From positions 1 to 35,929 of the IMG/VR virus record IMGVR_UViG_3300011591_000012: a stretch of 35,929 nucleotides of DNA, one strand, 5' to 3'. Positions 2,531 through 32,622 of the stretch are shown here, in pieces. Position numbers and translations under genes: made by a program. Each line of letters begins with the position of its first letter. Within the stretch, counting starts at the first letter, position 1. Origin of the DNA: a virus. Its lineage: Duplodnaviria > Heunggongvirae > Uroviricota > Caudoviricetes. Below the pieces are notes generated by a model. That model searched no databases. It was not told where the DNA came from and worked only from the letters and a program-made list of their open reading frames with translations.

Positions 2531-2536
2531 CCCCCC

Positions 2537-2622
2537 GCTGAAAAACATAACCCATAAATGCTAGCTGTACCAGGAACCACCTCCTTAGCCTGCGTAATCT
2601 CCCTTACACGGGCTTATTTTTT
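2537..2622 (+). ncRNA. cyaR: CyaR (RyeE) small regulatory RNA
   Basis: Sequence GCTGAAAAACATAACCCATAAATGCTAGCTGTACCAGGAACCACCTCCTTAGCC...CCCTTACACGGGCTTATTTTTT recognised as CyaR, including the anti-SD-like CCTCCTTA segment and the terminator hairpin with U-tail. Confidence 0.8.
2596..2622. other. P2-type attachment core (attR junction), overlapping the 3' end of cyaR
   Basis: Plus strand reads AATCTCCCTTACACGGGCTTATTTTTT, the reverse complement of the 27-bp P2 att core as I recall it (AAAAAATAAGCCCGTGTAAGGGAGATT); it is immediately followed by ogr and the rest of the prophage. Confidence 0.6.
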
Positions 2623-9825: not shown

Positions 9826-12090
9826 ATGGGTTTGCAAAGCATAAGAATAAAAAACTTACTATCATTTAATGATGTAATAATAAATTCCCTAGAGGATGTA
9901 AATTGCATTGTAGGGATGAATAATGTTGGCAAATCCAATCTTATGAAAATATTGAAATATTTTTACGACAAACTTGACGACATAAAAGTAATACCTCCTG
10001 ATTTTCATTCTAGTTATACTCCTTCAGGGTCAATAACATTGACTTATGATGTAACAAGAATAAAGAGAATTGTAATGAACCCTAATAACAATGGTCGCTT
10101 TCACAAGCATATTTATAACACTTTATTTAAGCCACAATCATTCATCCGAAAGCCGCAGAAATTCTGTCTTCCTTTCATATCTCCTTTGGGTTTCCAAAGA
10201 AAAAGCACTTATAGCATTACACTCACAATTTCTAAAGATGACTCCGTAACTTGGTCAATTAGCACACCAAATGCCCGGCATCTAATTAAAACTCTATTTC
10301 CTTTTTTCCATATTGAAACCAGACACATTGACTTATACGACTGGAATAGCATATGGAAAATGCTCAGCAGTATAAATTCCTTTAATTTCTCTGAAATAAA
10401 AAAAGAAGAACTCCTTGAGTTTTTGAATGAGAAAATATCAACTAAGCGGGGTAGTTACAAGAAGTATATAGAAAGAGTTGAAAATGTAATCCATACTAAA
10501 CCTTACACCTATAAAGATAAAGTCGTTAATTATCTAAAAATAGTTTTAGATGGCGATATCTTCATAAATAAAGGTGAAGAACTACATGTTCAGTCGGATG
10601 GCACGAACTCTCACAAATATCTTGAAATTATACTTAGCCTATTAATTTCATTAACAAGAACAGAATTTATCAATCCAATTATATATATTGATGAACCTGA
10701 AATTGGGCTACATCCAAAACTTAGCGAGAACTTTATTGAGAACATAAGCCTGACATATAAAAAGTATGATAAAACCCATGAGGAAATTGAGCCTGGAAAA
10801 TATTCAACACCATATCCAACTCTTATATTTAGCACTCATTCTCCGAGTTTACTAAAACTCACGCTAAAATCTTTCTTACATAAACAGCAGGTTTTGCATT
10901 TTTCAAAAGAACGTGACAACTCGACCAAAATTTCAAAATTAAACTCTAAATATAATGACATTAGATTTATAAATATGCTTAGCGATAATGAGGCCCGTCT
11001 ATTCTTTAGTGAATACATTCTATTTGTAGAGGGCGCCACAGAAGTTGAATTGTTTAGAAATTATAATCTGCAAAAGCTGTTTCCAGTACTTAAAAGGTTA
11101 GATGTGTATGATTGCGATGAAGTAATGTTGAAAAATATAAACCCCAGCTACTCAAATGCAGCCATCCCATTTCTAGTAGTAAAGGATATTGATCAGATTG
11201 CCGTTGTTGACTTCGAACATGAACAATTTAAATTTAATTCGAAAGGGAAATCAATTATTAATAAAATCATTAAGAGAGATAAACTACACTATTTTTCGAC
11301 ATACCAAAAACCTTTTCTTAACGCAGCAAAATTTCTTTTAAGCCAAGATGAAAGGAAAGTAACATTCAGTGAAAATGGCCTAAAATTCAGACACTTCAGT
11401 ATAGGCAGAGTTATAAGCGCAGTTAATTTTTTATCCTCTAAAGATAATGTTTATTATACTTCTACAACGATAGAAGGCTCATTGATCAATGAATTCTCTT
11501 TAGAGACATTCTCTTTATGGATCATTGACATAGTAATGAGAAGCTTTAATGTAAATAATAAAAACCCTGTAAAAATGATTAATGCTCTGCTGCAAAAATA
11601 CGATATTAAAACCCAATCAAAACAACTTTTTCCCAAAATACTTTCAAAATGTGAAACAAATCATAACCTACCATTGCGACACATGAGATTATTGAAAATC
11701 ATTAAAATTAGATATGCTAAAGAAATAATTGATGAGTTTAAAAAAACCATCCCCGACGTAAAAGACCAAGTTGCTATCTTGCGCCTTATTTTTAGTGGCA
11801 AAACAGAAACTCTTGTAAGTATAGAAATGCATTATAAAATTGATCAAAAACCGATACGGCAAGATATATTGGATTATATCAAAGCATTAAAGTCAGAAAA
11901 TTTCTCTTTTATGAGTTCTTACATAGGAAAGACTTCTGGATGGGTTACAAGCTTCATTGATTTTAGCCTTAATCATTATTCAGCCCTAGATAAAGAAAAT
12001 GTCGAAAAAAAATTCCGCTTGGCTTTTCCTGAAATTTCGCATATCATCGATCATGCTTCTTCTTCGATAGAAGCTGGAGGGCTCAAATGA
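9826..12090 (+). CDS. OLD-family nuclease: N-terminal ABC-type ATPase plus C-terminal Toprim domain
   Basis: 754 aa, low GC. Walker A GMNNVGKSN near the N-terminus; Walker B/D-loop IYIDEPEIGLHP; Toprim-like ILFVEGATEVE and VVKDIDQ (DxD) in the C-terminal half. Confidence 0.7.
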   Translation: MGLQSIRIKNLLSFNDVIINSLEDVNCIVGMNNVGKSNLMKILKYFYDKLDDIKVIPPDFHSSYTPSGSITLTYDVTRIKRIVMNPNNNGRFHKHIYNTLFKPQSFIRKPQKFCLPFISPLGFQRKSTYSITLTISKDDSVTWSISTPNARHLIKTLFPFFHIETRHIDLYDWNSIWKMLSSINSFNFSEIKKEELLEFLNEKISTKRGSYKKYIERVENVIHTKPYTYKDKVVNYLKIVLDGDIFINKGEELHVQSDGTNSHKYLEIILSLLISLTRTEFINPIIYIDEPEIGLHPKLSENFIENISLTYKKYDKTHEEIEPGKYSTPYPTLIFSTHSPSLLKLTLKSFLHKQQVLHFSKERDNSTKISKLNSKYNDIRFINMLSDNEARLFFSEYILFVEGATEVELFRNYNLQKLFPVLKRLDVYDCDEVMLKNINPSYSNAAIPFLVVKDIDQIAVVDFEHEQFKFNSKGKSIINKIIKRDKLHYFSTYQKPFLNAAKFLLSQDERKVTFSENGLKFRHFSIGRVISAVNFLSSKDNVYYTSTTIEGSLINEFSLETFSLWIIDIVMRSFNVNNKNPVKMINALLQKYDIKTQSKQLFPKILSKCETNHNLPLRHMRLLKIIKIRYAKEIIDEFKKTIPDVKDQVAILRLIFSGKTETLVSIEMHYKIDQKPIRQDILDYIKALKSENFSFMSSYIGKTSGWVTSFIDFSLNHYSALDKENVEKKFRLAFPEISHIIDHASSSIEAGGLK

Positions 12091-12201
12091 GCTGACGCAT
12101 GCCGTCACTTGCTCCAGCAAACACTAGCTCGGATTGTCTTGCGTCCGCTAAGCCGCTTTAAGCCTCACGGGGTGTAAAGATGTTATTGGTATCGAAGAGG
12201 A
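12058..12201 (+). ncRNA. Candidate structured ncRNA (retron msr/msd-like) between the OLD-like and RT genes
   Basis: 12-nt inverted repeat with one mismatch: TCTTCTTCGATA (12058-12069) versus TATCGAAGAGGA (12190-12201). Enclosed region is GC-rich against AT-rich flanks and has local stems GCTGGAG(12073-12079)/CTCCAGC(12111-12117) and TGACG(12093-12097)/CGTCA(12103-12107). The second repeat sits just upstream of the RT start. Confidence 0.25.
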
Positions 12202-12210
12202 AGCTTTTAC

Positions 12211-13308
12211 ATGAAACATAAAATTAATAAAATTAACAATGATTTTTATAAAAATTTTTATCTAAGAGAAACATTCTCCGATGATATTATTATGACTCAC
12301 GGAGTCCCTGAGATTTCCAATGACGATTATAAAAGCATTTCATTAAAGAATAGATTATGTTTCACTATAAGAAAAAGCTCCCCGCATAAAAAAATACAAG
12401 AAAGACTTATAAAAAATTTCCTAGTAAAAGTTCCTCTTAGCTCACCTGCAATTGCCTATCGTAAAAAATTAAACTATTTGAATTTTCTAGAACCTCATAT
12501 CCATGGTGAGAACTTTTGTCGAATTGACTTATGTAATTTTTTTCATAACATAAACTATAACTTTGCAAGGGAGTGTTTCAAATCCTACTTTGAAGATGAA
12601 TATCTGGTAAATAAAAAAATCAAAGTTATTGATGCATTTTTAAATAGTTTATCTATTGAGATTGTAGTCAACAATAAAAAGAAAAAAATATTTCCAATGG
12701 GATTCGCCACATCACCTTTCATATCCAATATAATTTTCAGAAAGTTAGATATTTTAATTAAAAGTTTGTGTGACAAAAGAAGCATCATTTACACTCGTTA
12801 TGCTGATGATATGCTTTTTTCGAGCTCCGGGAAAGACAAACTTCTTGGAAGTGAACATTTTGACAACGAGATATCAACTATTGTCAATACGGCAGGACTG
12901 TCCCTCAACAAACATAAAAAAATATTTAAGAAAGGCATAATCTCACTAAACGGCTATGTAATAGAAAATAAAAATGGAGGGGGAGAGAGAGGGAGTATAA
13001 GAATATCTAATGGAAAAATGTATTTAATACGGAAAGCACTAGATAAATTTAAAAAGGGATATTCTAAAGAGCATATTTGCAAAAAAGTATTTTCTGTTAA
13101 ATCACCAACTGTCAAGTATAATAACAATGCAGATCAGTTTGTAACGGATTTTTATAATTCACAATTCTCTAATAAGTTAGCTGGTTATCGTTCATATTTA
13201 ATATCATTAGTAAAATTTAATGATAAATTCAGATGTTTTCACGAAAACGAAATCACCAAATACTCAGTGATTATTGATGAAATTTCTAATGCACTGCTAA
13301 AACCCTAG
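12211..13308 (+). CDS. Reverse transcriptase, small retron/Abi-like (fingers-palm only)
   Basis: 365 aa, low GC. RT motifs read in the translation: motif A-like FCRIDLCNFFHNI, motif B-like FPMGFATSPFISNIIF, motif C YTRYADDMLFS (YADD box), motif D-like GLSLNKHK. GAGGA RBS 8 nt upstream. Confidence 0.75.
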   Translation: MKHKINKINNDFYKNFYLRETFSDDIIMTHGVPEISNDDYKSISLKNRLCFTIRKSSPHKKIQERLIKNFLVKVPLSSPAIAYRKKLNYLNFLEPHIHGENFCRIDLCNFFHNINYNFARECFKSYFEDEYLVNKKIKVIDAFLNSLSIEIVVNNKKKKIFPMGFATSPFISNIIFRKLDILIKSLCDKRSIIYTRYADDMLFSSSGKDKLLGSEHFDNEISTIVNTAGLSLNKHKKIFKKGIISLNGYVIENKNGGGERGSIRISNGKMYLIRKALDKFKKGYSKEHICKKVFSVKSPTVKYNNNADQFVTDFYNSQFSNKLAGYRSYLISLVKFNDKFRCFHENEITKYSVIIDEISNALLKP

Positions 13309-25005: not shown

Positions 25006-26778
25006 ATGACCATCACCACAGACACCACTCTTTTGCACGACCCGCGTCGTCAGGCGGCGCTGCTGTACTGGCAGGGGTTTTCCGTGCCGCAGATTGCCGC
25101 CATGTTGCAGATGAAACGCCCGACGGTGCAGAGCTGGAAACAGCGCGACGGCTGGGACAGCGTTGCCCCCATCAGCCGTGTCGAAATGAGTCTGGAAGCG
25201 CGGCTGACCCAGCTCATTATCAAACCGCAGAAAACCGGCGGTGACTTCAAGGAAATTGACCTGCTCGGACGCCAGATTGAACGACTGGCACGGGTAAACC
25301 GCTACAACCAGACCGGCAACGAGGCAGACCTTAATCCGAACATCGCTAACCGCAACAAAGGCGGGCGACGCAAACCGAAAAAGAATTTTTTCAGCGACGA
25401 GGCTATCGAAAAGCTGGAGCAGATTTTCTTTGAGCAGTCTTTCGAATATCAGTTGCACTGGTATCGCGCCGGGCTTGAGCACCGCATCCGCGATATCCTG
25501 AAATCCCGCCAGATTGGCGCGACGTTTTATTTTTCCCGCGAGGCGCTGCTGCGCGCCCTGAAAACCGGTCATAACCAGATTTTTCTGTCGGCCAGTAAAA
25601 CGCAGGCGTATGTGTTCCGCGAATACATCATCGCCTTTGCCCGGCTGGTTGACGTTGACCTGACCGGTGACCCGATTGCCCTGGGCAATAACGGCGCAAA
25701 ACTGATTTTTCTCGGCACCAACTCCAACACCGCACAGAGCCATAACGGCGACCTGTACGTCGACGAGATTTTCTGGATCCCGAATTTTCAGGTACTGCGT
25801 AAGGTGGCATCAGGTATGGCCTCACAGAGTCACCTGCGCTCGACCTATTTCTCCACCCCGTCCACGCTGGCGCACGACGCCTACCCGTTCTGGTCGGGGG
25901 AACTGTTTAACCGGGGACGCGCCAGCGCCGCTGAACGCGTGGAAATCGACGTCAGTCATAACGCCCTTGCCGGTGGGCTTCTCTGTGCGGACGGCCAGTG
26001 GCGGCAGATTGTCACCATTGAGGACGCGCTGAAAGGCGGCTGCACGCTGTTCGACATTGAGCAGCTCAAACGTGAAAACAGCGCCGACGATTTTAAAAAC
26101 CTGTTCATGTGTGAATTTGTTGACGACAAGGCGTCGGTGTTCCCGTTCGAGGAGCTGCAACGCTGCATGGTCGACACGCTGGAAGAATGGGAAGACTATG
26201 CGCCGTTTGCCGCCAATCCGTTCGGCTCCCGCCCGGTATGGATTGGTTACGACCCGTCACACCGTGGCGACAGCGCCGGATGCGTGGTACTGGCACCGCC
26301 GGTGGTGGCCGGTGGCAAATTCAGAATACTTGAGCGTCACCAGTGGAAAGGCATGGACTTTGCCACTCAGGCTGAATCCATCCGCAAACTCACTGAAAAA
26401 TACAACGTCGAATACATCGGAATTGATGCCACCGGCCTCGGTGTCGGCGTGTTCCAGCTCGTGCGCTCGTTCTATCCCGCCGCGCGCGATATCCGCTACA
26501 CACCGGAAATGAAAACCGCAATGGTGCTCAAGGCAAAAGACGTTATCCGTCGTGGCTGTCTGGAATATGACGTCAGCGCCACCGACATCACCAGCTCGTT
26601 TATGGCTATCCGCAAGACCATGACCAGCAGCGGACGCAGCGCCACCTATGAGGCCAGCCGCAGCGAGGAAGCCAGCCACGCCGACCTCGCCTGGGCGACC
26701 ATGCACGCCCTGTTAAATGAGCCACTCACCGCCGGTATCAGCACCTCGCTGACATCCACCATTCTGGAGTTTTACTGA
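25006..26778 (+). CDS. P: Terminase large (ATPase) subunit P
   Basis: 590-aa product from ATG 25006 (GAGG RBS); the ORF track start at 24976 is a TTG extension. Confidence 0.9.
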   Translation: MTITTDTTLLHDPRRQAALLYWQGFSVPQIAAMLQMKRPTVQSWKQRDGWDSVAPISRVEMSLEARLTQLIIKPQKTGGDFKEIDLLGRQIERLARVNRYNQTGNEADLNPNIANRNKGGRRKPKKNFFSDEAIEKLEQIFFEQSFEYQLHWYRAGLEHRIRDILKSRQIGATFYFSREALLRALKTGHNQIFLSASKTQAYVFREYIIAFARLVDVDLTGDPIALGNNGAKLIFLGTNSNTAQSHNGDLYVDEIFWIPNFQVLRKVASGMASQSHLRSTYFSTPSTLAHDAYPFWSGELFNRGRASAAERVEIDVSHNALAGGLLCADGQWRQIVTIEDALKGGCTLFDIEQLKRENSADDFKNLFMCEFVDDKASVFPFEELQRCMVDTLEEWEDYAPFAANPFGSRPVWIGYDPSHRGDSAGCVVLAPPVVAGGKFRILERHQWKGMDFATQAESIRKLTEKYNVEYIGIDATGLGVGVFQLVRSFYPAARDIRYTPEMKTAMVLKAKDVIRRGCLEYDVSATDITSSFMAIRKTMTSSGRSATYEASRSEEASHADLAWATMHALLNEPLTAGISTSLTSTILEFY

Positions 26779-27812
26779 TGAGCAAGAAAAAAGGGAAAAC
26801 ACCGCAACCTGCGGCAAAAAAAATGACCGCCAGCGCCCCGAAAATGGAGGCATTCACCTTTGGTGAGCCGGTGCCGGTACTCGACCGCCGTGACATTCTG
26901 GATTACGTCGAGTGCATCAGTAACGGCAGATGGTATGAGCCACCGGTCAGCTTTACCGGTCTGGCAAAAAGCCTGCGTGCTGCCGTACATCACAGCTCAC
27001 CGATTTACGTCAAACGTAATATTCTGGCTTCAACGTTTATTCCGCACCCGTGGCTTTCCCAGCAGGATTTCAGCCGCTTTGTGCTGGATTTTCTGGTGTT
27101 CGGTAATGCGTTTCTGGAAAAGCGTTACAGCACCACCGGTAAGGTCATCAGACTGGAAACCTCACCGGCAAAATATACCCGCCGTGGTGTGGAAGAGGAT
27201 GTTTACTGGTGGGTGCCGTCCTTCAACGAGCCGACAGCCTTCGCGCCCGGCTCCGTGTTTCACCTGCTGGAGCCCGATATTAATCAGGAGCTGTACGGCC
27301 TGCCGGAATATCTGAGCGCCCTTAACTCTGCCTGGCTGAATGAGTCGGCCACGCTGTTCCGCCGCAAGTATTACGAAAACGGCGCACATGCCGGATACAT
27401 CATGTACGTCACTGATGCCGTGCAGGATCGCAACGATATCGAAATGCTTCGCGAAAACATGGTGAAGTCGAAAGGCCGCAACAACTTTAAAAACCTGTTT
27501 CTCTATGCCCCGCAGGGGAAAGCCGACGGCATTAAAATTATCCCGCTCAGTGAAGTGGCAACGAAGGACGATTTTTTTAATATCAAAAAAGCCAGCGCCG
27601 CTGACCTGCTGGACGCGCACCGCATCCCCTTTCAGTTGATGGGCGGCAAGCCGGAGAACGTCGGGTCGCTGGGCGATATTGAGAAAGTGGCAAAGGTCTT
27701 TGTCCGCAATGAGCTTATCCCGTTACAGGACAGGATCCGCGAGATAAACGGCTGGCTCGGTCAGGAGGTCATCCGCTTTAAAAACTACTCACTGGACACT
27801 GACAACGGCTGA
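26778..27812 (+). CDS. Q: Portal protein Q
   Basis: 344-aa ORF overlapping the P stop; size and position of P2 gpQ. Confidence 0.9.
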   Translation: MSKKKGKTPQPAAKKMTASAPKMEAFTFGEPVPVLDRRDILDYVECISNGRWYEPPVSFTGLAKSLRAAVHHSSPIYVKRNILASTFIPHPWLSQQDFSRFVLDFLVFGNAFLEKRYSTTGKVIRLETSPAKYTRRGVEEDVYWWVPSFNEPTAFAPGSVFHLLEPDINQELYGLPEYLSALNSAWLNESATLFRRKYYENGAHAGYIMYVTDAVQDRNDIEMLRENMVKSKGRNNFKNLFLYAPQGKADGIKIIPLSEVATKDDFFNIKKASAADLLDAHRIPFQLMGGKPENVGSLGDIEKVAKVFVRNELIPLQDRIREINGWLGQEVIRFKNYSLDTDNG

Positions 27813-27981: not shown

Positions 27982-28000
27982 GTGCTTTCCCCGCCTCGCC
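27982..28000. other. cos site (19-nt cohesive end)
   Basis: Plus strand GTGCTTTCCCCGCCTCGCC is the reverse complement of the P2 cohesive end GGCGAGGCGGGGAAAGCAC as I recall it; it sits just beyond Q as in P2. Confidence 0.6.
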
Positions 28001-28128
28001 CGCCCGCTTCATGGGTCGGTTTTAATGCAGGTGCACGAACACACTGGAGACGCACCAGTACTGGCGGTGGTCACGTAGATCCGCCCCTTAAAAGCCATGC
28101 AGAATAATGCAACTATTGCGGGCGTCGG

Positions 28129-28548
28129 CTAATCATCTTCTAAAGGTGGAATTTTGATGCCACTAATTAGCAGTACTTTCCGGTATGCCTCAAAAATAAT
28201 GTTGTGTGTTTTTTGTAAATCATCGAGCATTTTTTGCCGTCCTGCTGGGGTATCTTTGGCAAAATTATGAGCGCGAAAAAAATCATGTGCCAAGTAGTTT
28301 CTGGCTTTAAGAGCATCTGACACATACTCCAGTGTATCAGCATCCTCCACCATCCTAGACTTCAGTGCGTAATTCAATTTACCCAGCGTGTATTTATCCA
28401 TTTCTAAAAACTGTTTTTTCAGCGACTGTATATCTTTCCCCTGACTCATATCATACTCAGTGATAACATTTATCAACTCAGTCTCCAGTAATTGAGCTGC
28501 TTCCGAAGCATAACCAAATTTCCAATAAACCGTATCAAGCGTCACCAT
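28129..28548 (-). CDS. Small alpha-helical protein with HEPN-like Rx4HxF motif (candidate RNase or partner protein)
   Basis: 139 aa, low GC; motif ALKARNYLAHDFF resembles the HEPN Rx4-6H signature; GGGGA RBS; 91 bp downstream of the HNH gene on the same strand. Confidence 0.45.
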   Translation of the reverse strand: MVTLDTVYWKFGYASEAAQLLETELINVITEYDMSQGKDIQSLKKQFLEMDKYTLGKLNYALKSRMVEDADTLEYVSDALKARNYLAHDFFRAHNFAKDTPAGRQKMLDDLQKTHNIIFEAYRKVLLISGIKIPPLEDD

Positions 28549-28639
28549 ATAATCTATTCCCCATATAACAAATCACACCCCAAATTAAATCATAATACAT
28601 AATTAAATCTAACGCCTCGCTGCACCAGAAGAAGTCATG

Positions 28640-29971
28640 TTAACGCTTATCATGGAACTTTTTCCATTTTGTCATCAACTTTCCAGCATCAAGTTCTACA
28701 TGATGCGGTTGTAGAGTTTTACCCTCAAACATAGTTTTGTGGATACAATTAATAGAAAAATGAACCGTTAAGTCCTCTGGATTAATCCCCATTAATCCTT
28801 TATCAAACATTCGGTGTAAACTTACTTCAAGTAACAGGCCATTAGATGTGTTATTATTTGCTGATTCTGTTATTGCTTCAATATGTGCGGCTTCCAATAT
28901 CCCCTCTGGCAATGGATAGCCAGTAATAGCACATCTGCCATTGAAGTTATCCCAAACACGGCGTTTGAAATCAGCTTGATCTCCAGCATGACGGACTTTG
29001 TGAGTAACCTCGACTGTTCGTCCTGTAGCACAGGTATCGTTTGCGGCCTTGAAAGGATTAGTTAGACTTTCATTAATGGCTATATCCGTTCCATCCATGA
29101 TAAGAGATATTTCATTATTGGGTTCGGATGATGTTAATGGACTTATGTACTGATTGCTTAAAAAAGTCATACTAGATTCTTCATCAGTCGCGAGTTTCCA
29201 CGCTTCTGATTGTGTCATTGTTAGCAATGCCGTTTGATAAACTTGCTTATTAAAATAACGTTTATCTTTCTTGTCACTCCCCATATTAATAGTACTAGAT
29301 TTAATCGGAAGTGTTTTATCACCAATTAGTAGATCACGTATTTCTACAGTCTCTTCTAAGGTATCAATAGGAGCTACTATAGGGTTAGTCAACGGGTTAT
29401 CTACATGATCTACGTGGTTGTGTCGTAAATGCCACTCTATAGCACTATCTTTTATATGTATCTCGCAGACAGGGCATACAATAAGCCCCATAGATGTTAC
29501 AGGTAGCTTTTTGCCACCGATTAAGCGTAATGTATTTGCATTCTGGTTATGTACTTTCTTTTGGTTCTGTGTCAGTACACTACGCTTAGCCTCTAAACGG
29601 GTCGGAATCTTAGCAAGATTAAGCGATTTACGGCTCTCTTGTCTCTCAAGATCATAGATCCGAATCCCTGCTCCAGTTTTGATTTTTGTCCACATAGAGA
29701 TAGAACTAAGGAATTTATGTCCATGTACTTTTTCATAATCAGCATAAGCTTGCAAAGTAGCAGTGGAACTATCTAATCCTTTTTTACGGAGTGCTGTATA
29801 TTGCTGAAAAAGATTAATAGCATGAGCTGTAATAGAGCGCCTATTCTCTATAATTTGCGTTTTTTTTGCTGCTTGTTCTGCTTGCAATGCTTTTTGTTCA
29901 GGGGTAAGCGACTTCTTTTTGGCTTTCTTGGTTCTTTTCTTACTCAAAGTTTTCTTACTGTTATTGTTCAT
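28640..29971 (-). CDS. HNH-family nuclease with lysine-rich N-terminus and C2H2-like zinc-binding motif
   Basis: 443 aa, low GC. C-terminal segment CAITGYPLPEGILEAAHIEAI...NGLLLEVSLHRMFDKGLMGINPEDLTVHFS matches the HNH_2-type pattern. Central CPVCEIHIKDSAIEWHLRHNH; N-terminal KKTLSKKRTKKAKKK basic stretch. Confidence 0.6.
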   Translation of the reverse strand: MNNNSKKTLSKKRTKKAKKKSLTPEQKALQAEQAAKKTQIIENRRSITAHAINLFQQYTALRKKGLDSSTATLQAYADYEKVHGHKFLSSISMWTKIKTGAGIRIYDLERQESRKSLNLAKIPTRLEAKRSVLTQNQKKVHNQNANTLRLIGGKKLPVTSMGLIVCPVCEIHIKDSAIEWHLRHNHVDHVDNPLTNPIVAPIDTLEETVEIRDLLIGDKTLPIKSSTINMGSDKKDKRYFNKQVYQTALLTMTQSEAWKLATDEESSMTFLSNQYISPLTSSEPNNEISLIMDGTDIAINESLTNPFKAANDTCATGRTVEVTHKVRHAGDQADFKRRVWDNFNGRCAITGYPLPEGILEAAHIEAITESANNNTSNGLLLEVSLHRMFDKGLMGINPEDLTVHFSINCIHKTMFEGKTLQPHHVELDAGKLMTKWKKFHDKR

Positions 29972-30080
29972 TTTGCAAGCCTTTAATCTAATTCATGGAA
30001 AGGGGCATTCACTTGCCCTGTATCCAGTAAACTGACATAACACGATATAAGCAAGCTCCGTAATTCTTTCATGTTAATCA

Positions 30081-32357
30081 TCAATGGTCCATTGTGAATC
30101 CCGGCCACTCATCAGCGACCGGATACGTGAATTTTTTACCGTCGTAATTTACAGTCGCGCCACGCGCCAGCGCCTCAAGCTCCCATCGCTGCGGCCTGAT
30201 ACCGTTCTGAGCAAGGTCAACGCGGATACGGGTGATTTGCATTCGTTCCGACCTGTTCAGTCTGGCCGATGGCGCTATTTCATGCGGTTTTAACGGGCTT
30301 CCGTTTCTTTGCTGACGGTTTGGTCTTCTCAGGCCGTGTTTTAATGCGCTTCTGAGCGCCCTCACGACCTCCGGGTCATTCCATTCGATAACACCGTCAT
30401 CAACCAGATTAAGCACGGCTGCGGCGTGCTCAGAAGGTGTGGGAGCCGGTAACGAAGTATCACCACCGGTGAGCTTTCCACAGTTATTGACAGGACTCCG
30501 AGGCGCGGCGATGCCGCTTTTTAAAGTCAAAGGCTCAACGACCGGAACTTTCGGCACAATGCGCCAGTCCGTCGTTCTGGTGATATGAATATGACGCGCG
30601 CCGAGATGCGGCGCGTAAATGCCGACCACTCTCTCGACTTCTTCCTCATACTCGTTAACGTCATCCGACGGGCTACGGGCGACCCTGACAGTCTGACAAT
30701 CGCGCGGGACATTTGCCCCACCCTGCGCGCTGATATACAACGCAAAATCACCACTGTCTGCGGCGGCGCGTGCAGCCTCGACGCGTTCGTCAAACTCATC
30801 AGCAATGCTGACGCCGCGAGGCAATTTGCGTAGTTCACGGTAAGCCCCCATTGTCGGCAGGCCAACCGTTTTAAATTGCGGAATGCGCCACGTTGACGCC
30901 CATGCGGTAACAGCCGCGGCAGTATCTTTCAGCGGCCTGCCAGTATCGTTATCGAGCTGACCATCCAGTGCATAGCCGTCGATGTTTTTTGAGATGTATT
31001 TCGCGATATATCCCGCAGCACCGCCCCGGTTAAGGTGTTTTGCCTGAAAACGGTTTCGCGCAGCGCCTCTTTCGTCACCATCCTCTTTGAGCGCATAGCG
31101 ACGCATGATTTCGATAATCTGGTTACGCTGGCGTGGATTACAAAAAAGCATCATATGCCAGTGCGGCGTTCCGTCGTGGTGTGGCTCAACGACACGCAAA
31201 CCGTAGACCTGTAAATCATTATCCTTGAATGCCGTCCGCATCAGGCTCCAGATACGGCAGAGATAACGCTGCGCATCCTTTGGATTAAATGCCTCATCGT
31301 TCCAGCCGTGATTAAGCTGAACGGTTTTACTTTCGCCTTTTCCGACCTGACGTGTCGGGTGATACTTTGACGGCGCGGTCAGCGTGATAAACATCCCCAC
31401 ATCACCCTCTGCGGCGGCGTAACGCTCAATACCGGCAATGGTGTTCATCAGCTCCATCCGGCGAATTTCAGGATTAGAAATACTGCCCATCACCTTACTG
31501 ATAAGGTCGATGCGCTCGCCGGTTTCCCTGTTTTCAAGGTCACACGATTTAAGAAATTCCAGATTTGCCTGGCGGCGTGCACGTACATCACGAATGGCAT
31601 GTTTACTGGCATAAGGAGAACGGTCTTTATTCACCTCCCCGACAGCAATCAGTAACGCCTCATGCCAGCGCATACGCTGGCCTTTAAGCTGATGAGTCCA
31701 CCACTCATCGTTAAACAGACGGGCAATGGCAGAATATGCCTGCCTCGTGGTTATCTGTCCTTTACGGTATTTTTTCCAGTAGAGCGGGGAAATATTGAAA
31801 GCACGTGCAGCGCCAGCAACATGACCATACAGATGATCCTGCGCCTCATCCGTAAACAGCGATTCTTTTTCGCCATGCGCATCCACCCAGGCATCGCAGA
31901 GTTCCTCATACATCATGAAAAGCTGCGATGAGATACGGGCGGCAAACTTTTTCAGCTCCTTGTCATTCATCCCCGGCAGACGCGCATAATGGTCACGCTC
32001 TGCCAAAAACAGCAACGACGCGTCGGTGTTCATTTCATGGCGCTGATTCACACGCTCAATGCGCGGCCATAAACGACGCTGAAAAGTGGATGTGAGGAAA
32101 TAAAACCCGTGCACCGGGCTTTTATTGCGCCGGATGTAGTCATAGCGTGAAGTAAACAGCGAGCGCAAAAAGTAAGGCAGGCGGTTAATCGTGGATAAAA
32201 CACCTTGCACCTGACGCATCTCATCACGTGTAAGGGGTCTTTCGCGCCCGACAGCCTCGCGTGGCGCGTTCCATGCATAAGCACCGGCAAACGTCTTACC
32301 GGTGCCTGCGGCAAATGCTGACGGAGGGACAAAACGCCCGGAGGCTTTAACGGCCAT
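30081..32357 (-). CDS. A: Replication initiation protein A (rolling-circle HUH endonuclease)
   Basis: HUH motif HWH in VEPHHDGTPHWHMMLF and tyrosine pair in GYIAKYISKNIDGY. Start uncertain: ATG 32357 (AGAGG RBS), or TTG codons at 32366 or 32399. Confidence 0.85.
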   Translation of the reverse strand: MAVKASGRFVPPSAFAAGTGKTFAGAYAWNAPREAVGRERPLTRDEMRQVQGVLSTINRLPYFLRSLFTSRYDYIRRNKSPVHGFYFLTSTFQRRLWPRIERVNQRHEMNTDASLLFLAERDHYARLPGMNDKELKKFAARISSQLFMMYEELCDAWVDAHGEKESLFTDEAQDHLYGHVAGAARAFNISPLYWKKYRKGQITTRQAYSAIARLFNDEWWTHQLKGQRMRWHEALLIAVGEVNKDRSPYASKHAIRDVRARRQANLEFLKSCDLENRETGERIDLISKVMGSISNPEIRRMELMNTIAGIERYAAAEGDVGMFITLTAPSKYHPTRQVGKGESKTVQLNHGWNDEAFNPKDAQRYLCRIWSLMRTAFKDNDLQVYGLRVVEPHHDGTPHWHMMLFCNPRQRNQIIEIMRRYALKEDGDERGAARNRFQAKHLNRGGAAGYIAKYISKNIDGYALDGQLDNDTGRPLKDTAAAVTAWASTWRIPQFKTVGLPTMGAYRELRKLPRGVSIADEFDERVEAARAAADSGDFALYISAQGGANVPRDCQTVRVARSPSDDVNEYEEEVERVVGIYAPHLGARHIHITRTTDWRIVPKVPVVEPLTLKSGIAAPRSPVNNCGKLTGGDTSLPAPTPSEHAAAVLNLVDDGVIEWNDPEVVRALRSALKHGLRRPNRQQRNGSPLKPHEIAPSARLNRSERMQITRIRVDLAQNGIRPQRWELEALARGATVNYDGKKFTYPVADEWPGFTMDH

Positions 32358-32622
32358 ATGAGCCAAAAGCCTCTGAACAACGCTTGCTGAGTTGCTCAAC
32401 CTGCGCGTTTAAATCAGCAAAAGACTTTGCGCTTCCGGTCAGAATATCGTGATGCATCAGGCCGGAAACGAGCTGGCTTAATTTCGGGTAATAACCAACC
32501 ACCGCCAGCCATTCCTGACCGGCGTTTTTACCGCTTTCCGCTCTCTTTTTCTCGTGGAGAATAAACTGAAAGCTGTCACTGGTAACGACATAACGTTCGC
32601 CAATTTCAATACGAATACTCAT
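32347..32622 (-). CDS. Hypothetical early-operon protein
   Basis: 91-aa ORF between the zinc-finger gene and A, overlapping neighbours by a few nt; no family recognised. Confidence 0.5.
   Translation of the reverse strand: MSIRIEIGERYVVTSDSFQFILHEKKRAESGKNAGQEWLAVVGYYPKLSQLVSGLMHHDILTGSAKSFADLNAQVEQLSKRCSEAFGSYGR

Follow-up and report, generated by a model that had tools for sequence, protein, structure and literature searches.

As defence modules, single-polypeptide nucleases of the Type IV kind are compact, and they also provide useful reagents with which to map DNA modifications, their specificity residing in the reader part of the molecule. In VcaM4I, the bare HNH domain was found to be a toxic, non-specific nuclease with the preceding helix being auto-inhibitory, and the H224A variant serves as the inactive control (PMC7897488). 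In phage P2, the slot between gpA and gpQ holds old and tin and constitutes a hotspot of anti-phage systems (PMC9122126, PMC9519451). A supplementary table of Rousset et al. 2022 contains the entry 'HNH_2 + hypothetical: WP_023304084 + WP_023281582', and HNH is never mentioned in the main text of that work (PMC9122126). Here, the first member of this pair is analysed as it occurs in IMG/VR virus record IMGVR_UViG_3300011591_000012, whose positions 1 to 35,929 make up the whole stretch of DNA that was studied (35,929 nucleotides, hereafter the window). The window represents a P2-like prophage with genes for capsid, terminase, portal, replication endonuclease, cox and integrase. The gene in question, located at 28640..29971 on the minus strand, encodes a protein of 443 amino acids (aa), designated here ZnF-HNH, in which a predicted C2H2 zinc finger (ZnF) and further helical modules precede an HNH_2 nuclease domain akin to that of modification-dependent restriction enzymes (MDREs). 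By analogy, we lean towards its being a stand-alone, single-gene nuclease for defence against phages or other mobile genetic elements, carried in the P2 gpA-gpQ hotspot.

The ZnF-HNH gene and its family

The open reading frame (ORF) begins with an ATG codon preceded, 8 nt upstream, by AAGG, and its product is identical to WP_023304084.1 of E. coli UPEC85, with the stretch of window DNA that carries the gene also being 100% identical to that strain. RefSeq labels the protein 'HNH endonuclease signature motif containing protein', and the family is named in the sources only as 'HNH endonuclease'. Literature searches, either for the accession WP_023304084 or for C2H2 combined with HNH and prophage or phage defence, returned nothing. 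The initial annotation of this DNA had delimited the ORF exactly and had read a three-part architecture into its product, consisting of a basic N-terminus, a C2H2-like motif and a C-terminal HNH core. This architecture is real and conserved in the family, but a helical hairpin, a three-helix module, the loss of an insert and the hotspot location had been overlooked. The locus is rare: of 5426 complete E. coli genomes, 12 have it, and these are mostly porcine enterotoxigenic E. coli. In NZ_CP080235.1 (E. coli O139:H1), the match to the locus is split in two, with an IS3-family transposase annotated beneath the match, which suggests an insertion sequence (IS) within or next to the cargo.

A search of 5.8 billion proteins yielded about 55 clusters with the full architecture, all of them from Enterobacterales, in addition to generic HNH_2 proteins, and a further scan of contigs provided only five Enterobacterales species representatives and three unrelated HNH_2 proteins. 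Conservation was measured in two family alignments of 27 and 64 members. The order of zinc finger, three-helix module and HNH_2 domain is kept in all distant relatives. When a profile of the N-terminal part was run against 1.84 billion representatives, the output was swamped by eukaryotic poly-zinc-finger proteins. All single-stretch matches in this set had the ZnF-HNH_2 architecture, and none showed the sensor module joined to another effector.

The nuclease domain resembles that of modification-dependent restriction enzymes

The linker helix and the HNH_2 beta-beta-alpha-Me domain occupy aa 325-443 (28643..28999, minus strand). The core had previously been placed in the last ~90 residues, and its C-terminal position is correct, but the structural domain comprises ~120 aa. 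The Pfam model HNH_2 (PF13391), whose cut-off is 21 bits, was matched by aa 347-397 with 42.3 bits (E=6.6e-11), and also by all 27 aligned relatives. The catalytic residues are present, with H363 (codon 28883-28885), N377 (28841-28843) and H386 (28814-28816) being invariant in 64 sequences, and H363 aligns with the catalytic H224 of VcaM4I, the top PDB sequence match. In three comparisons of orthologues, the HNH domain always showed more synonymous than non-synonymous changes, and the zinc-finger region did so in one of them.

For the predicted structures, two AlphaFold models were available, namely that of the window protein, which is poor overall with a predicted local distance difference test score (pLDDT) of 54.7, and a better one of the orthologue P0003, built on the 64-sequence alignment, with a mean pLDDT of 69. 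In the orthologue model, aa 325-443 are predicted as the helix followed by the beta-beta-alpha fold with pLDDT of 87-96, and a helix before the HNH domain, as in VcaM4I, is seen in both models. Fold comparison places the domain in the MDRE structural subgroup, with TagI, VcaM4I and McrA as its closest structural relatives, and Cap5-type HNH effectors are also among the fold matches. The BFVD viral fold library gave matches to the HNH domain only, and a Foldseek search of PDB with the first, poor model gave nothing below E=0.4. A sub-threshold match of the 443-aa protein to the NCBIfam model for phosphorothioate-DNA restriction endonuclease was also recorded. In PADLOC-DB v2, the protein has no match to any named system and is recognised by generic HNH models only (PDLC04132, 2.2e-11; PDLC03546, 1.8e-7). 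Three further residues inside the domain, C347, H404 and C409 (nt ~28745-28933), are invariant or nearly so in the 64 relatives and may form a second, structural metal site.

A predicted classical C2H2 finger in the N-terminal part

The zinc finger spans aa 160-189 (29405..29494, minus strand), as delimited by ligand conservation, the PDB profile and the predicted fold, and its core CPVCEIHIKDSAIEWHLRHNH, corresponding to aa 166-186, has the form C-x2-C-x11-H-x4-H. The four ligand positions, C166 (29474-29476), C169 (29465-29467), H181 (29429-29431) and H186 (29414-29416), are conserved in at least 90% of members in both alignments. A C-x2-C-x10-13-H-x3-5-H motif is found in 62 of 64 members, five of which have two copies, and on the aligned sequences this conservation is far beyond chance. 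Most members adhere to the textbook form C-x2-C-x3-F-x5-hydrophobic-x2-H-x4-H; compared with this form, the spacer from the second Cys to the first His lacks one residue in the finger of the window protein (x11).

A family profile confined to the non-HNH region (aa 140-325) was compared with all PDB sequences and matched classical C2H2 fingers only, always at the finger positions. The matches comprise Aart (E 1.5e-11), a consensus finger (5.6e-8), Miz-1, and the single fingers of ZNF622 (9.5e-5) and MP42 (1.2e-4). Some distant relatives, including P0106, P0131 and P0159, exceed the Pfam cut-offs for zf-C2H2, zf-C2H2_4, zf-met, zf-C2H2_6 or zf-C2H2_jaz. The window protein taken alone reaches no Pfam C2H2 cut-off, its only such match being to OrsD with 15.3 bits against a cut-off of 26.6. 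AlphaFold places a beta-hairpin followed by a helix at the finger, with pLDDT of 73-82 for the window protein and 72-85 for the orthologue. The C2H2-like motif pointed out earlier is hence predicted, from sequence and models, to be a genuine classical C2H2 finger, the clustering of its Cys/His residues being addressed indirectly, through this secondary structure. Two fingers and/or an H-x5-H spacing were noted among the relatives P0017, P0106, P0110, P0131 and P0182, the H-x5-H spacing of several fingers being of the zf-met/JAZ type that binds double-stranded RNA or hybrids.

The base-reading positions of the finger are occupied by K/S/A/W in the window protein and by S/G/G/D in the largest subfamily, and the residues at these positions are conserved within subfamilies and not diversified. 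Because such helix residues are atypical for base reading and are kept constant within subfamilies, the finger probably reads no specific sequence and would have a constant ligand or a structural role instead. The proposal in the initial annotation of a sensor or DNA-recognition module fused to a nuclease fits the MDRE structural relatives, but the finger itself does not look like a sequence reader. For the N-terminal 320 aa as a whole, profile, PDB and fold searches revealed no similarity to known readers of modified DNA.

Optional insert, basic tail and helical modules

One of the structural features that distinguish the window copy is the loss of a segment behind the finger. In the closest relatives (502-512 aa), the finger is followed by a beta-beta-beta-alpha insert of ~60 aa; a homologous insert is present in the distant member P0192, and most family members are without it. 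The insert-bearing form was found in Citrobacter, Pectobacterium and Buttiauxella, and the loci compared were L004:5562-5855 and L013. According to the DNA alignment, an in-frame deletion between two TTGATAC repeats, at ~29363-29370 (minus strand), has removed 183 nt from the window copy, and the last helix of the insert, DTLEETVEIRDLLIG (29321..29365, minus strand), is left as a remnant. Nearly the same segment is missing from a copy in a lambdoid prophage, with a different junction. Its independent loss, and its absence from most members, mark the insert as an optional module, of which at least two losses have occurred. An AP2-like nature of the insert was also considered and found no support in profile or fold searches.

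At the N-terminus, a Lys-rich tail covers aa 5-21 (29909..29959, minus strand; SKKTLSKKRTKKAKKKS), with 10 of 17 residues being K or R. Over the first 40 residues there are 12 K and 1 R against 2 E and no D, in agreement with the very basic N-terminus described before. The tail is predicted to be disordered, with pLDDT below 50 in both the window and the orthologue model. It is K-rich in 7/7 close orthologues but has no alignable counterpart in the wider family, and is hence a property of the close subfamily. Between orthologues, ~45 codons of this region show 16-17 non-synonymous versus 4-5 synonymous changes with the frame kept. Since codon change is mostly non-synonymous while the K-rich composition and the frame persist, the tail looks like a compositionally maintained, weakly constrained and fast-evolving segment and not like a conserved domain.

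The tail is followed by a long alpha-helical hairpin at aa 24-89 (29705..29902, minus strand), for which the pLDDT is 72-80 in the window model and 83-93 in that of the orthologue. On these models the hairpin is possibly a coiled coil or a dimerisation element, and structure searches with it returned no fold match. Downstream of the finger, a conserved three-helix module at aa 240-275 (29147..29254, minus strand; pLDDT 88-91 in the orthologue model) carries the family motif YxxxxYxxAhxxMxxxEAxKLAxDE, in which Y245 and A257 are almost invariant. This module is present in every distant relative, and P0110 has two copies of it. In the P0003 model, the order of elements is hairpin, disordered linker, finger, three-helix module, disordered linker, helix and HNH domain.

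Location in the gpA-gpQ slot and autonomy of the gene

The gene lies on a sharply bounded cargo island of low GC content (34-44%) at 28100..30080, in a prophage of ~55% GC, flanked by gpA (30081-32399) and the portal gene gpQ (26778-27812). The 19-nt cohesive-end sequence of P2, GGCGAGGCGGGGAAAGCAC, is matched exactly at 27982-28000 (minus strand), which puts cos in the interval that separates gpQ from the cargo and marks the cos end of the slot. Shuffled sequences indicate that no chance occurrence of these 19 nt is to be expected, and the position of the match agrees with the description of the hotspot (PMC9122126). This hotspot context is the main clue to the function of the 443-aa gene.

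The second gene of the island, 28129..28548 (minus strand), encodes the 139-aa helical protein WP_023281582.1, a homologue of gp38 of Salmonella phage PSP3 (72% identity; phrog_12893), with a weak PADLOC match to PD-Lambda-3_B (E 0.002). It represents a cos-proximal cargo gene of the P2 lineage. A minority of P2-like phages have it, invariably as the final gene ahead of cos, and it is combined there with four upstream cargo sets, of which those without HNH are a DUF2971 cluster, tumA/tumB/gp37 and DUF3850. It is present in 31 of 5426 E. coli genomes, 12 of which also have the HNH gene, and absent from the family loci L003-L018 and L021-L037, covering about a dozen distinct contexts. The 443-aa and 139-aa genes are on the same strand, 91 bp apart, with a terminator-like hairpin between them; a promoter scan at the locus gave results no better than shuffles. 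On co-occurrence across the family loci, the 139-aa product was rejected as a partner or immunity protein.

Relatives of the ZnF-HNH gene occupy diverse mobile settings. One stands alone adjoining Gabija, another resides in an smpB island with a NACHT protein nearby, and a third is found in the Q-lysis moron slot of a lambdoid prophage adjoining a TIR protein. Others were found in an integrative mobilisable element, as cargo of an integrative and conjugative element (ICE), in an integrase islet, in an island with type VI secretion system and YadA genes, and next to a PARIS-like AAA_15/21+DUF4435 pair with ArdC-N anti-restriction and DUF1281 genes nearby. None of the family loci examined showed a methyltransferase or any recurring neighbour, and neither gpA nor gpQ is near any of the other family loci fetched. 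Overall, the picture is that of a self-contained single-gene module that moves horizontally and tends to be found in the company of defence genes.

Proposed function and its alternatives

In the reading to which we lean, that of a stand-alone defence nuclease, the C-terminal 120 aa would act as an HNH_2 His-Me-finger nuclease as in the Type IV enzymes TagI, VcaM4I and McrA. The N-terminal 320 aa would take the place of the usual PUA, SRA or EVE reader, with a different module made up of the basic tail, the helical hairpin, the C2H2 finger, the optional beta3-alpha insert (lost here) and the three-helix unit. This module would sense incoming nucleic acid through base hypermodification or an unusual structure, a specific sequence being unlikely. 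Recognition would release a probably dimeric HNH domain from auto-inhibition by its leading helix, and the freed domain would then cleave the DNA of the invader. No methyltransferase would be needed, because host DNA would be without the recognised feature. Dependence on modification specifically is possible, if doubtful, and follows from analogy with the MDREs. That the finger and the three-helix module together form a new reader of hypermodified or structurally unusual phage DNA gating an MDRE-type HNH domain is a speculative and rather unlikely proposition.

Several points weigh against the defence reading. The role of the family in defence is argued by analogy, with no named PADLOC match, and the location in the hotspot is no more than suggestive. 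The gpA-gpQ slot also houses partition systems and toxins (PMC9122126). The pair of genes is not among the systems that Rousset et al. describe as tested or active (PMC9122126), and neither that paper nor Vassallo et al. 2022 (PMC9519451) reports protection by the ZnF-HNH locus. Since the N-terminal module has no detectable similarity to any known reader of modified DNA, dependence on modification is purely an analogy. The finger could be structural or protein-binding, given helix residues unlike those of DNA-reading fingers. The loss of the ~60-aa insert means that the activity of the window copy may differ from that of the longer forms, and the AlphaFold model of the window protein itself (pLDDT 54.7) is poor.

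Among the alternatives, the one that survives best, although unlikely, is an abortive-infection effector that senses a phage protein or a perturbation of the cell, whereupon the HNH domain would degrade host and phage DNA and the infected cell would die. C2H2 fingers can also mediate protein contacts, and the residues of this finger's helix do not resemble those of base readers. Cap5-type HNH effectors, found among the fold matches, act in this manner; the isolated HNH_2 domain of VcaM4I is non-specific and toxic (PMC7897488), and many P2-hotspot systems are thought to be abortive (PMC9122126). However, the closest structural relatives are direct-acting restriction enzymes and not signal-activated effectors, no partner sensor gene or recognisable ligand-binding domain was observed in the loci and profiles examined, and binding to nucleic acid is the more typical role of a basic tail combined with a zinc finger.

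It is improbable that the protein is a free-standing homing or selfish HNH endonuclease, whose zinc finger and insert would target DNA and which would spread by cutting cognate sites in related mobile elements. Homing enzymes of the HNH type have a modular build, in which small DNA-binding modules such as zinc fingers and AP2-like domains are frequent, and the occurrence of the gene as a lone unit in many different mobile elements, together with the beta3-alpha layout of the optional insert, would be in keeping with such a life style. Yet no NUMOD, IENR or AP2 match was obtained even at E<=10, the insertion sites are cargo or defence slots and do not lie within or beside a conserved target gene, and 440-510 aa is large for a homing enzyme.

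About as improbable is the view that the window copy is decaying or neutral cargo, a deletion derivative with impaired or no function, in which case the gene, like any inactive or non-defensive version of it, would be an ordinary HNH cargo gene. This view draws on the in-frame 183-nt deletion at the TTGATAC microhomology relative to the closest relatives, the scarcity of the gene (12/5426 complete E. coli genomes) and the one copy (H11, NZ_CP080235.1) interrupted by or adjacent to an IS3 element. On the other side stand an intact reading frame with all catalytic and zinc-ligand residues, the excess of synonymous over non-synonymous change in the HNH domain (3/3 comparisons; zinc-finger region 1/3), and the independent loss of the insert elsewhere and its absence in most members, which mark it as optional.

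Very improbable is a toxin-immunity or addiction pair that would stabilise the prophage, with the HNH toxin neutralised by the 139-aa protein encoded downstream. Nuclease toxins commonly have small immunity proteins, and the two genes are adjacent, 91 bp apart on one strand. They are also paired in the table of Rousset et al. (PMC9122126). The 139-aa gene, however, accompanies three other cargo sets in P2-like phages without any HNH gene, is missing from loci L003-L018 and L021-L037 of the family, and is separated from the HNH gene by the terminator-like hairpin. Scarcely credible is a packaging-associated HNH protein aiding terminase at cos as in HK97-like phages, for although cos is no more than ~650 bp away from the gene and the portal and terminase genes are close by, the HNH proteins that serve in packaging are small (~100 aa) and of a different subfamily, P2 and the great majority of P2-like prophages do without the gene (12/5426 genomes), relatives reside in non-phage elements, and the low GC content of the island marks it as foreign cargo.

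Other features of the window

A second variable slot is located among the tail genes at 9826-13308 (plus strand), where a low-GC island (31-33%) encodes a 754-aa ATPase-TOPRIM protein (PADLOC ATPase-Toprim_I-B, E 1.6e-210) and a 365-aa reverse transcriptase (PADLOC RT_I-B, E 2.7e-106). As judged from these matches, the two genes constitute a type I-B retron, of which no msr/msd RNA was detected at the Rfam gathering threshold. The small RNA CyaR/RyeE (Rfam RF00112, 98.9 bits) maps to 2535-2619 (plus strand), just beyond the tail-gene end of the prophage, which therefore occupies a cyaR-adjacent attachment region.

Comparison with known systems

With TagI, VcaM4I and EcoKMcrA/ScoMcrA, the ZnF-HNH protein shares the layout of an N-terminal recognition part, a helix and a C-terminal HNH_2-type nuclease in a single chain, and as with these Type IV enzymes no cognate methyltransferase is encoded, be it at the window locus or in any of the other settings studied. 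The readers of Type IV enzymes (SRA, EVE, PUA, NEco, SBD or winged-helix) do not, however, occur in its N-terminal part, and its reader module has no known counterpart. The END-nuclease and CMoRE systems of the literature are likewise single proteins and thus analogous, but they are unrelated. Like old, tin and the systems of Rousset et al. 2022 and Vassallo et al. 2022, the gene resides in the slot beside cos as part of a variable low-GC cargo; in contrast to the validated hotspot systems, its locus has been catalogued only, without a named PADLOC match.

What is already known thus comprises the HNH domain family, the hotspot and the catalogued locus. What is new is the sensor half, that is, a conserved eukaryote-style C2H2 finger, a type rare in bacteria, and unassigned helical modules on an MDRE-type nuclease. 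For one of the many P2-hotspot cargo sets, a concrete and testable hypothesis is hence available. If the finger and the three-helix module did act as a new reader of this kind, the family would represent a novel class of sensor in Type IV restriction or anti-phage defence, spread as one-gene cargo of Enterobacterales prophages, ICEs and islands. Should the module sense a DNA modification or structure, restriction biology would gain a further class of sensor, and fusions of zinc fingers with nucleases a natural precedent.

In most of the family, the finger has the C-x2-C-x12-H-x4-H form and the usual hydrophobic positions of eukaryote-type C2H2 fingers, but it comes as one or two fingers and not as an array, and prokaryotic fingers of the Ros/MucR type are not among the profile matches of the family. 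A role of the finger as the source of sequence specificity, as in engineered zinc-finger nucleases, has no evidence in its favour. Those engineered enzymes join a zinc-finger array to the PD-(D/E)XK nuclease FokI, whereas the ZnF-HNH family is natural, mostly single-fingered and equipped with an HNH domain. The likeness is one of concept only, each combining a C2H2 finger with a non-specific nuclease that needs activation or dimerisation.

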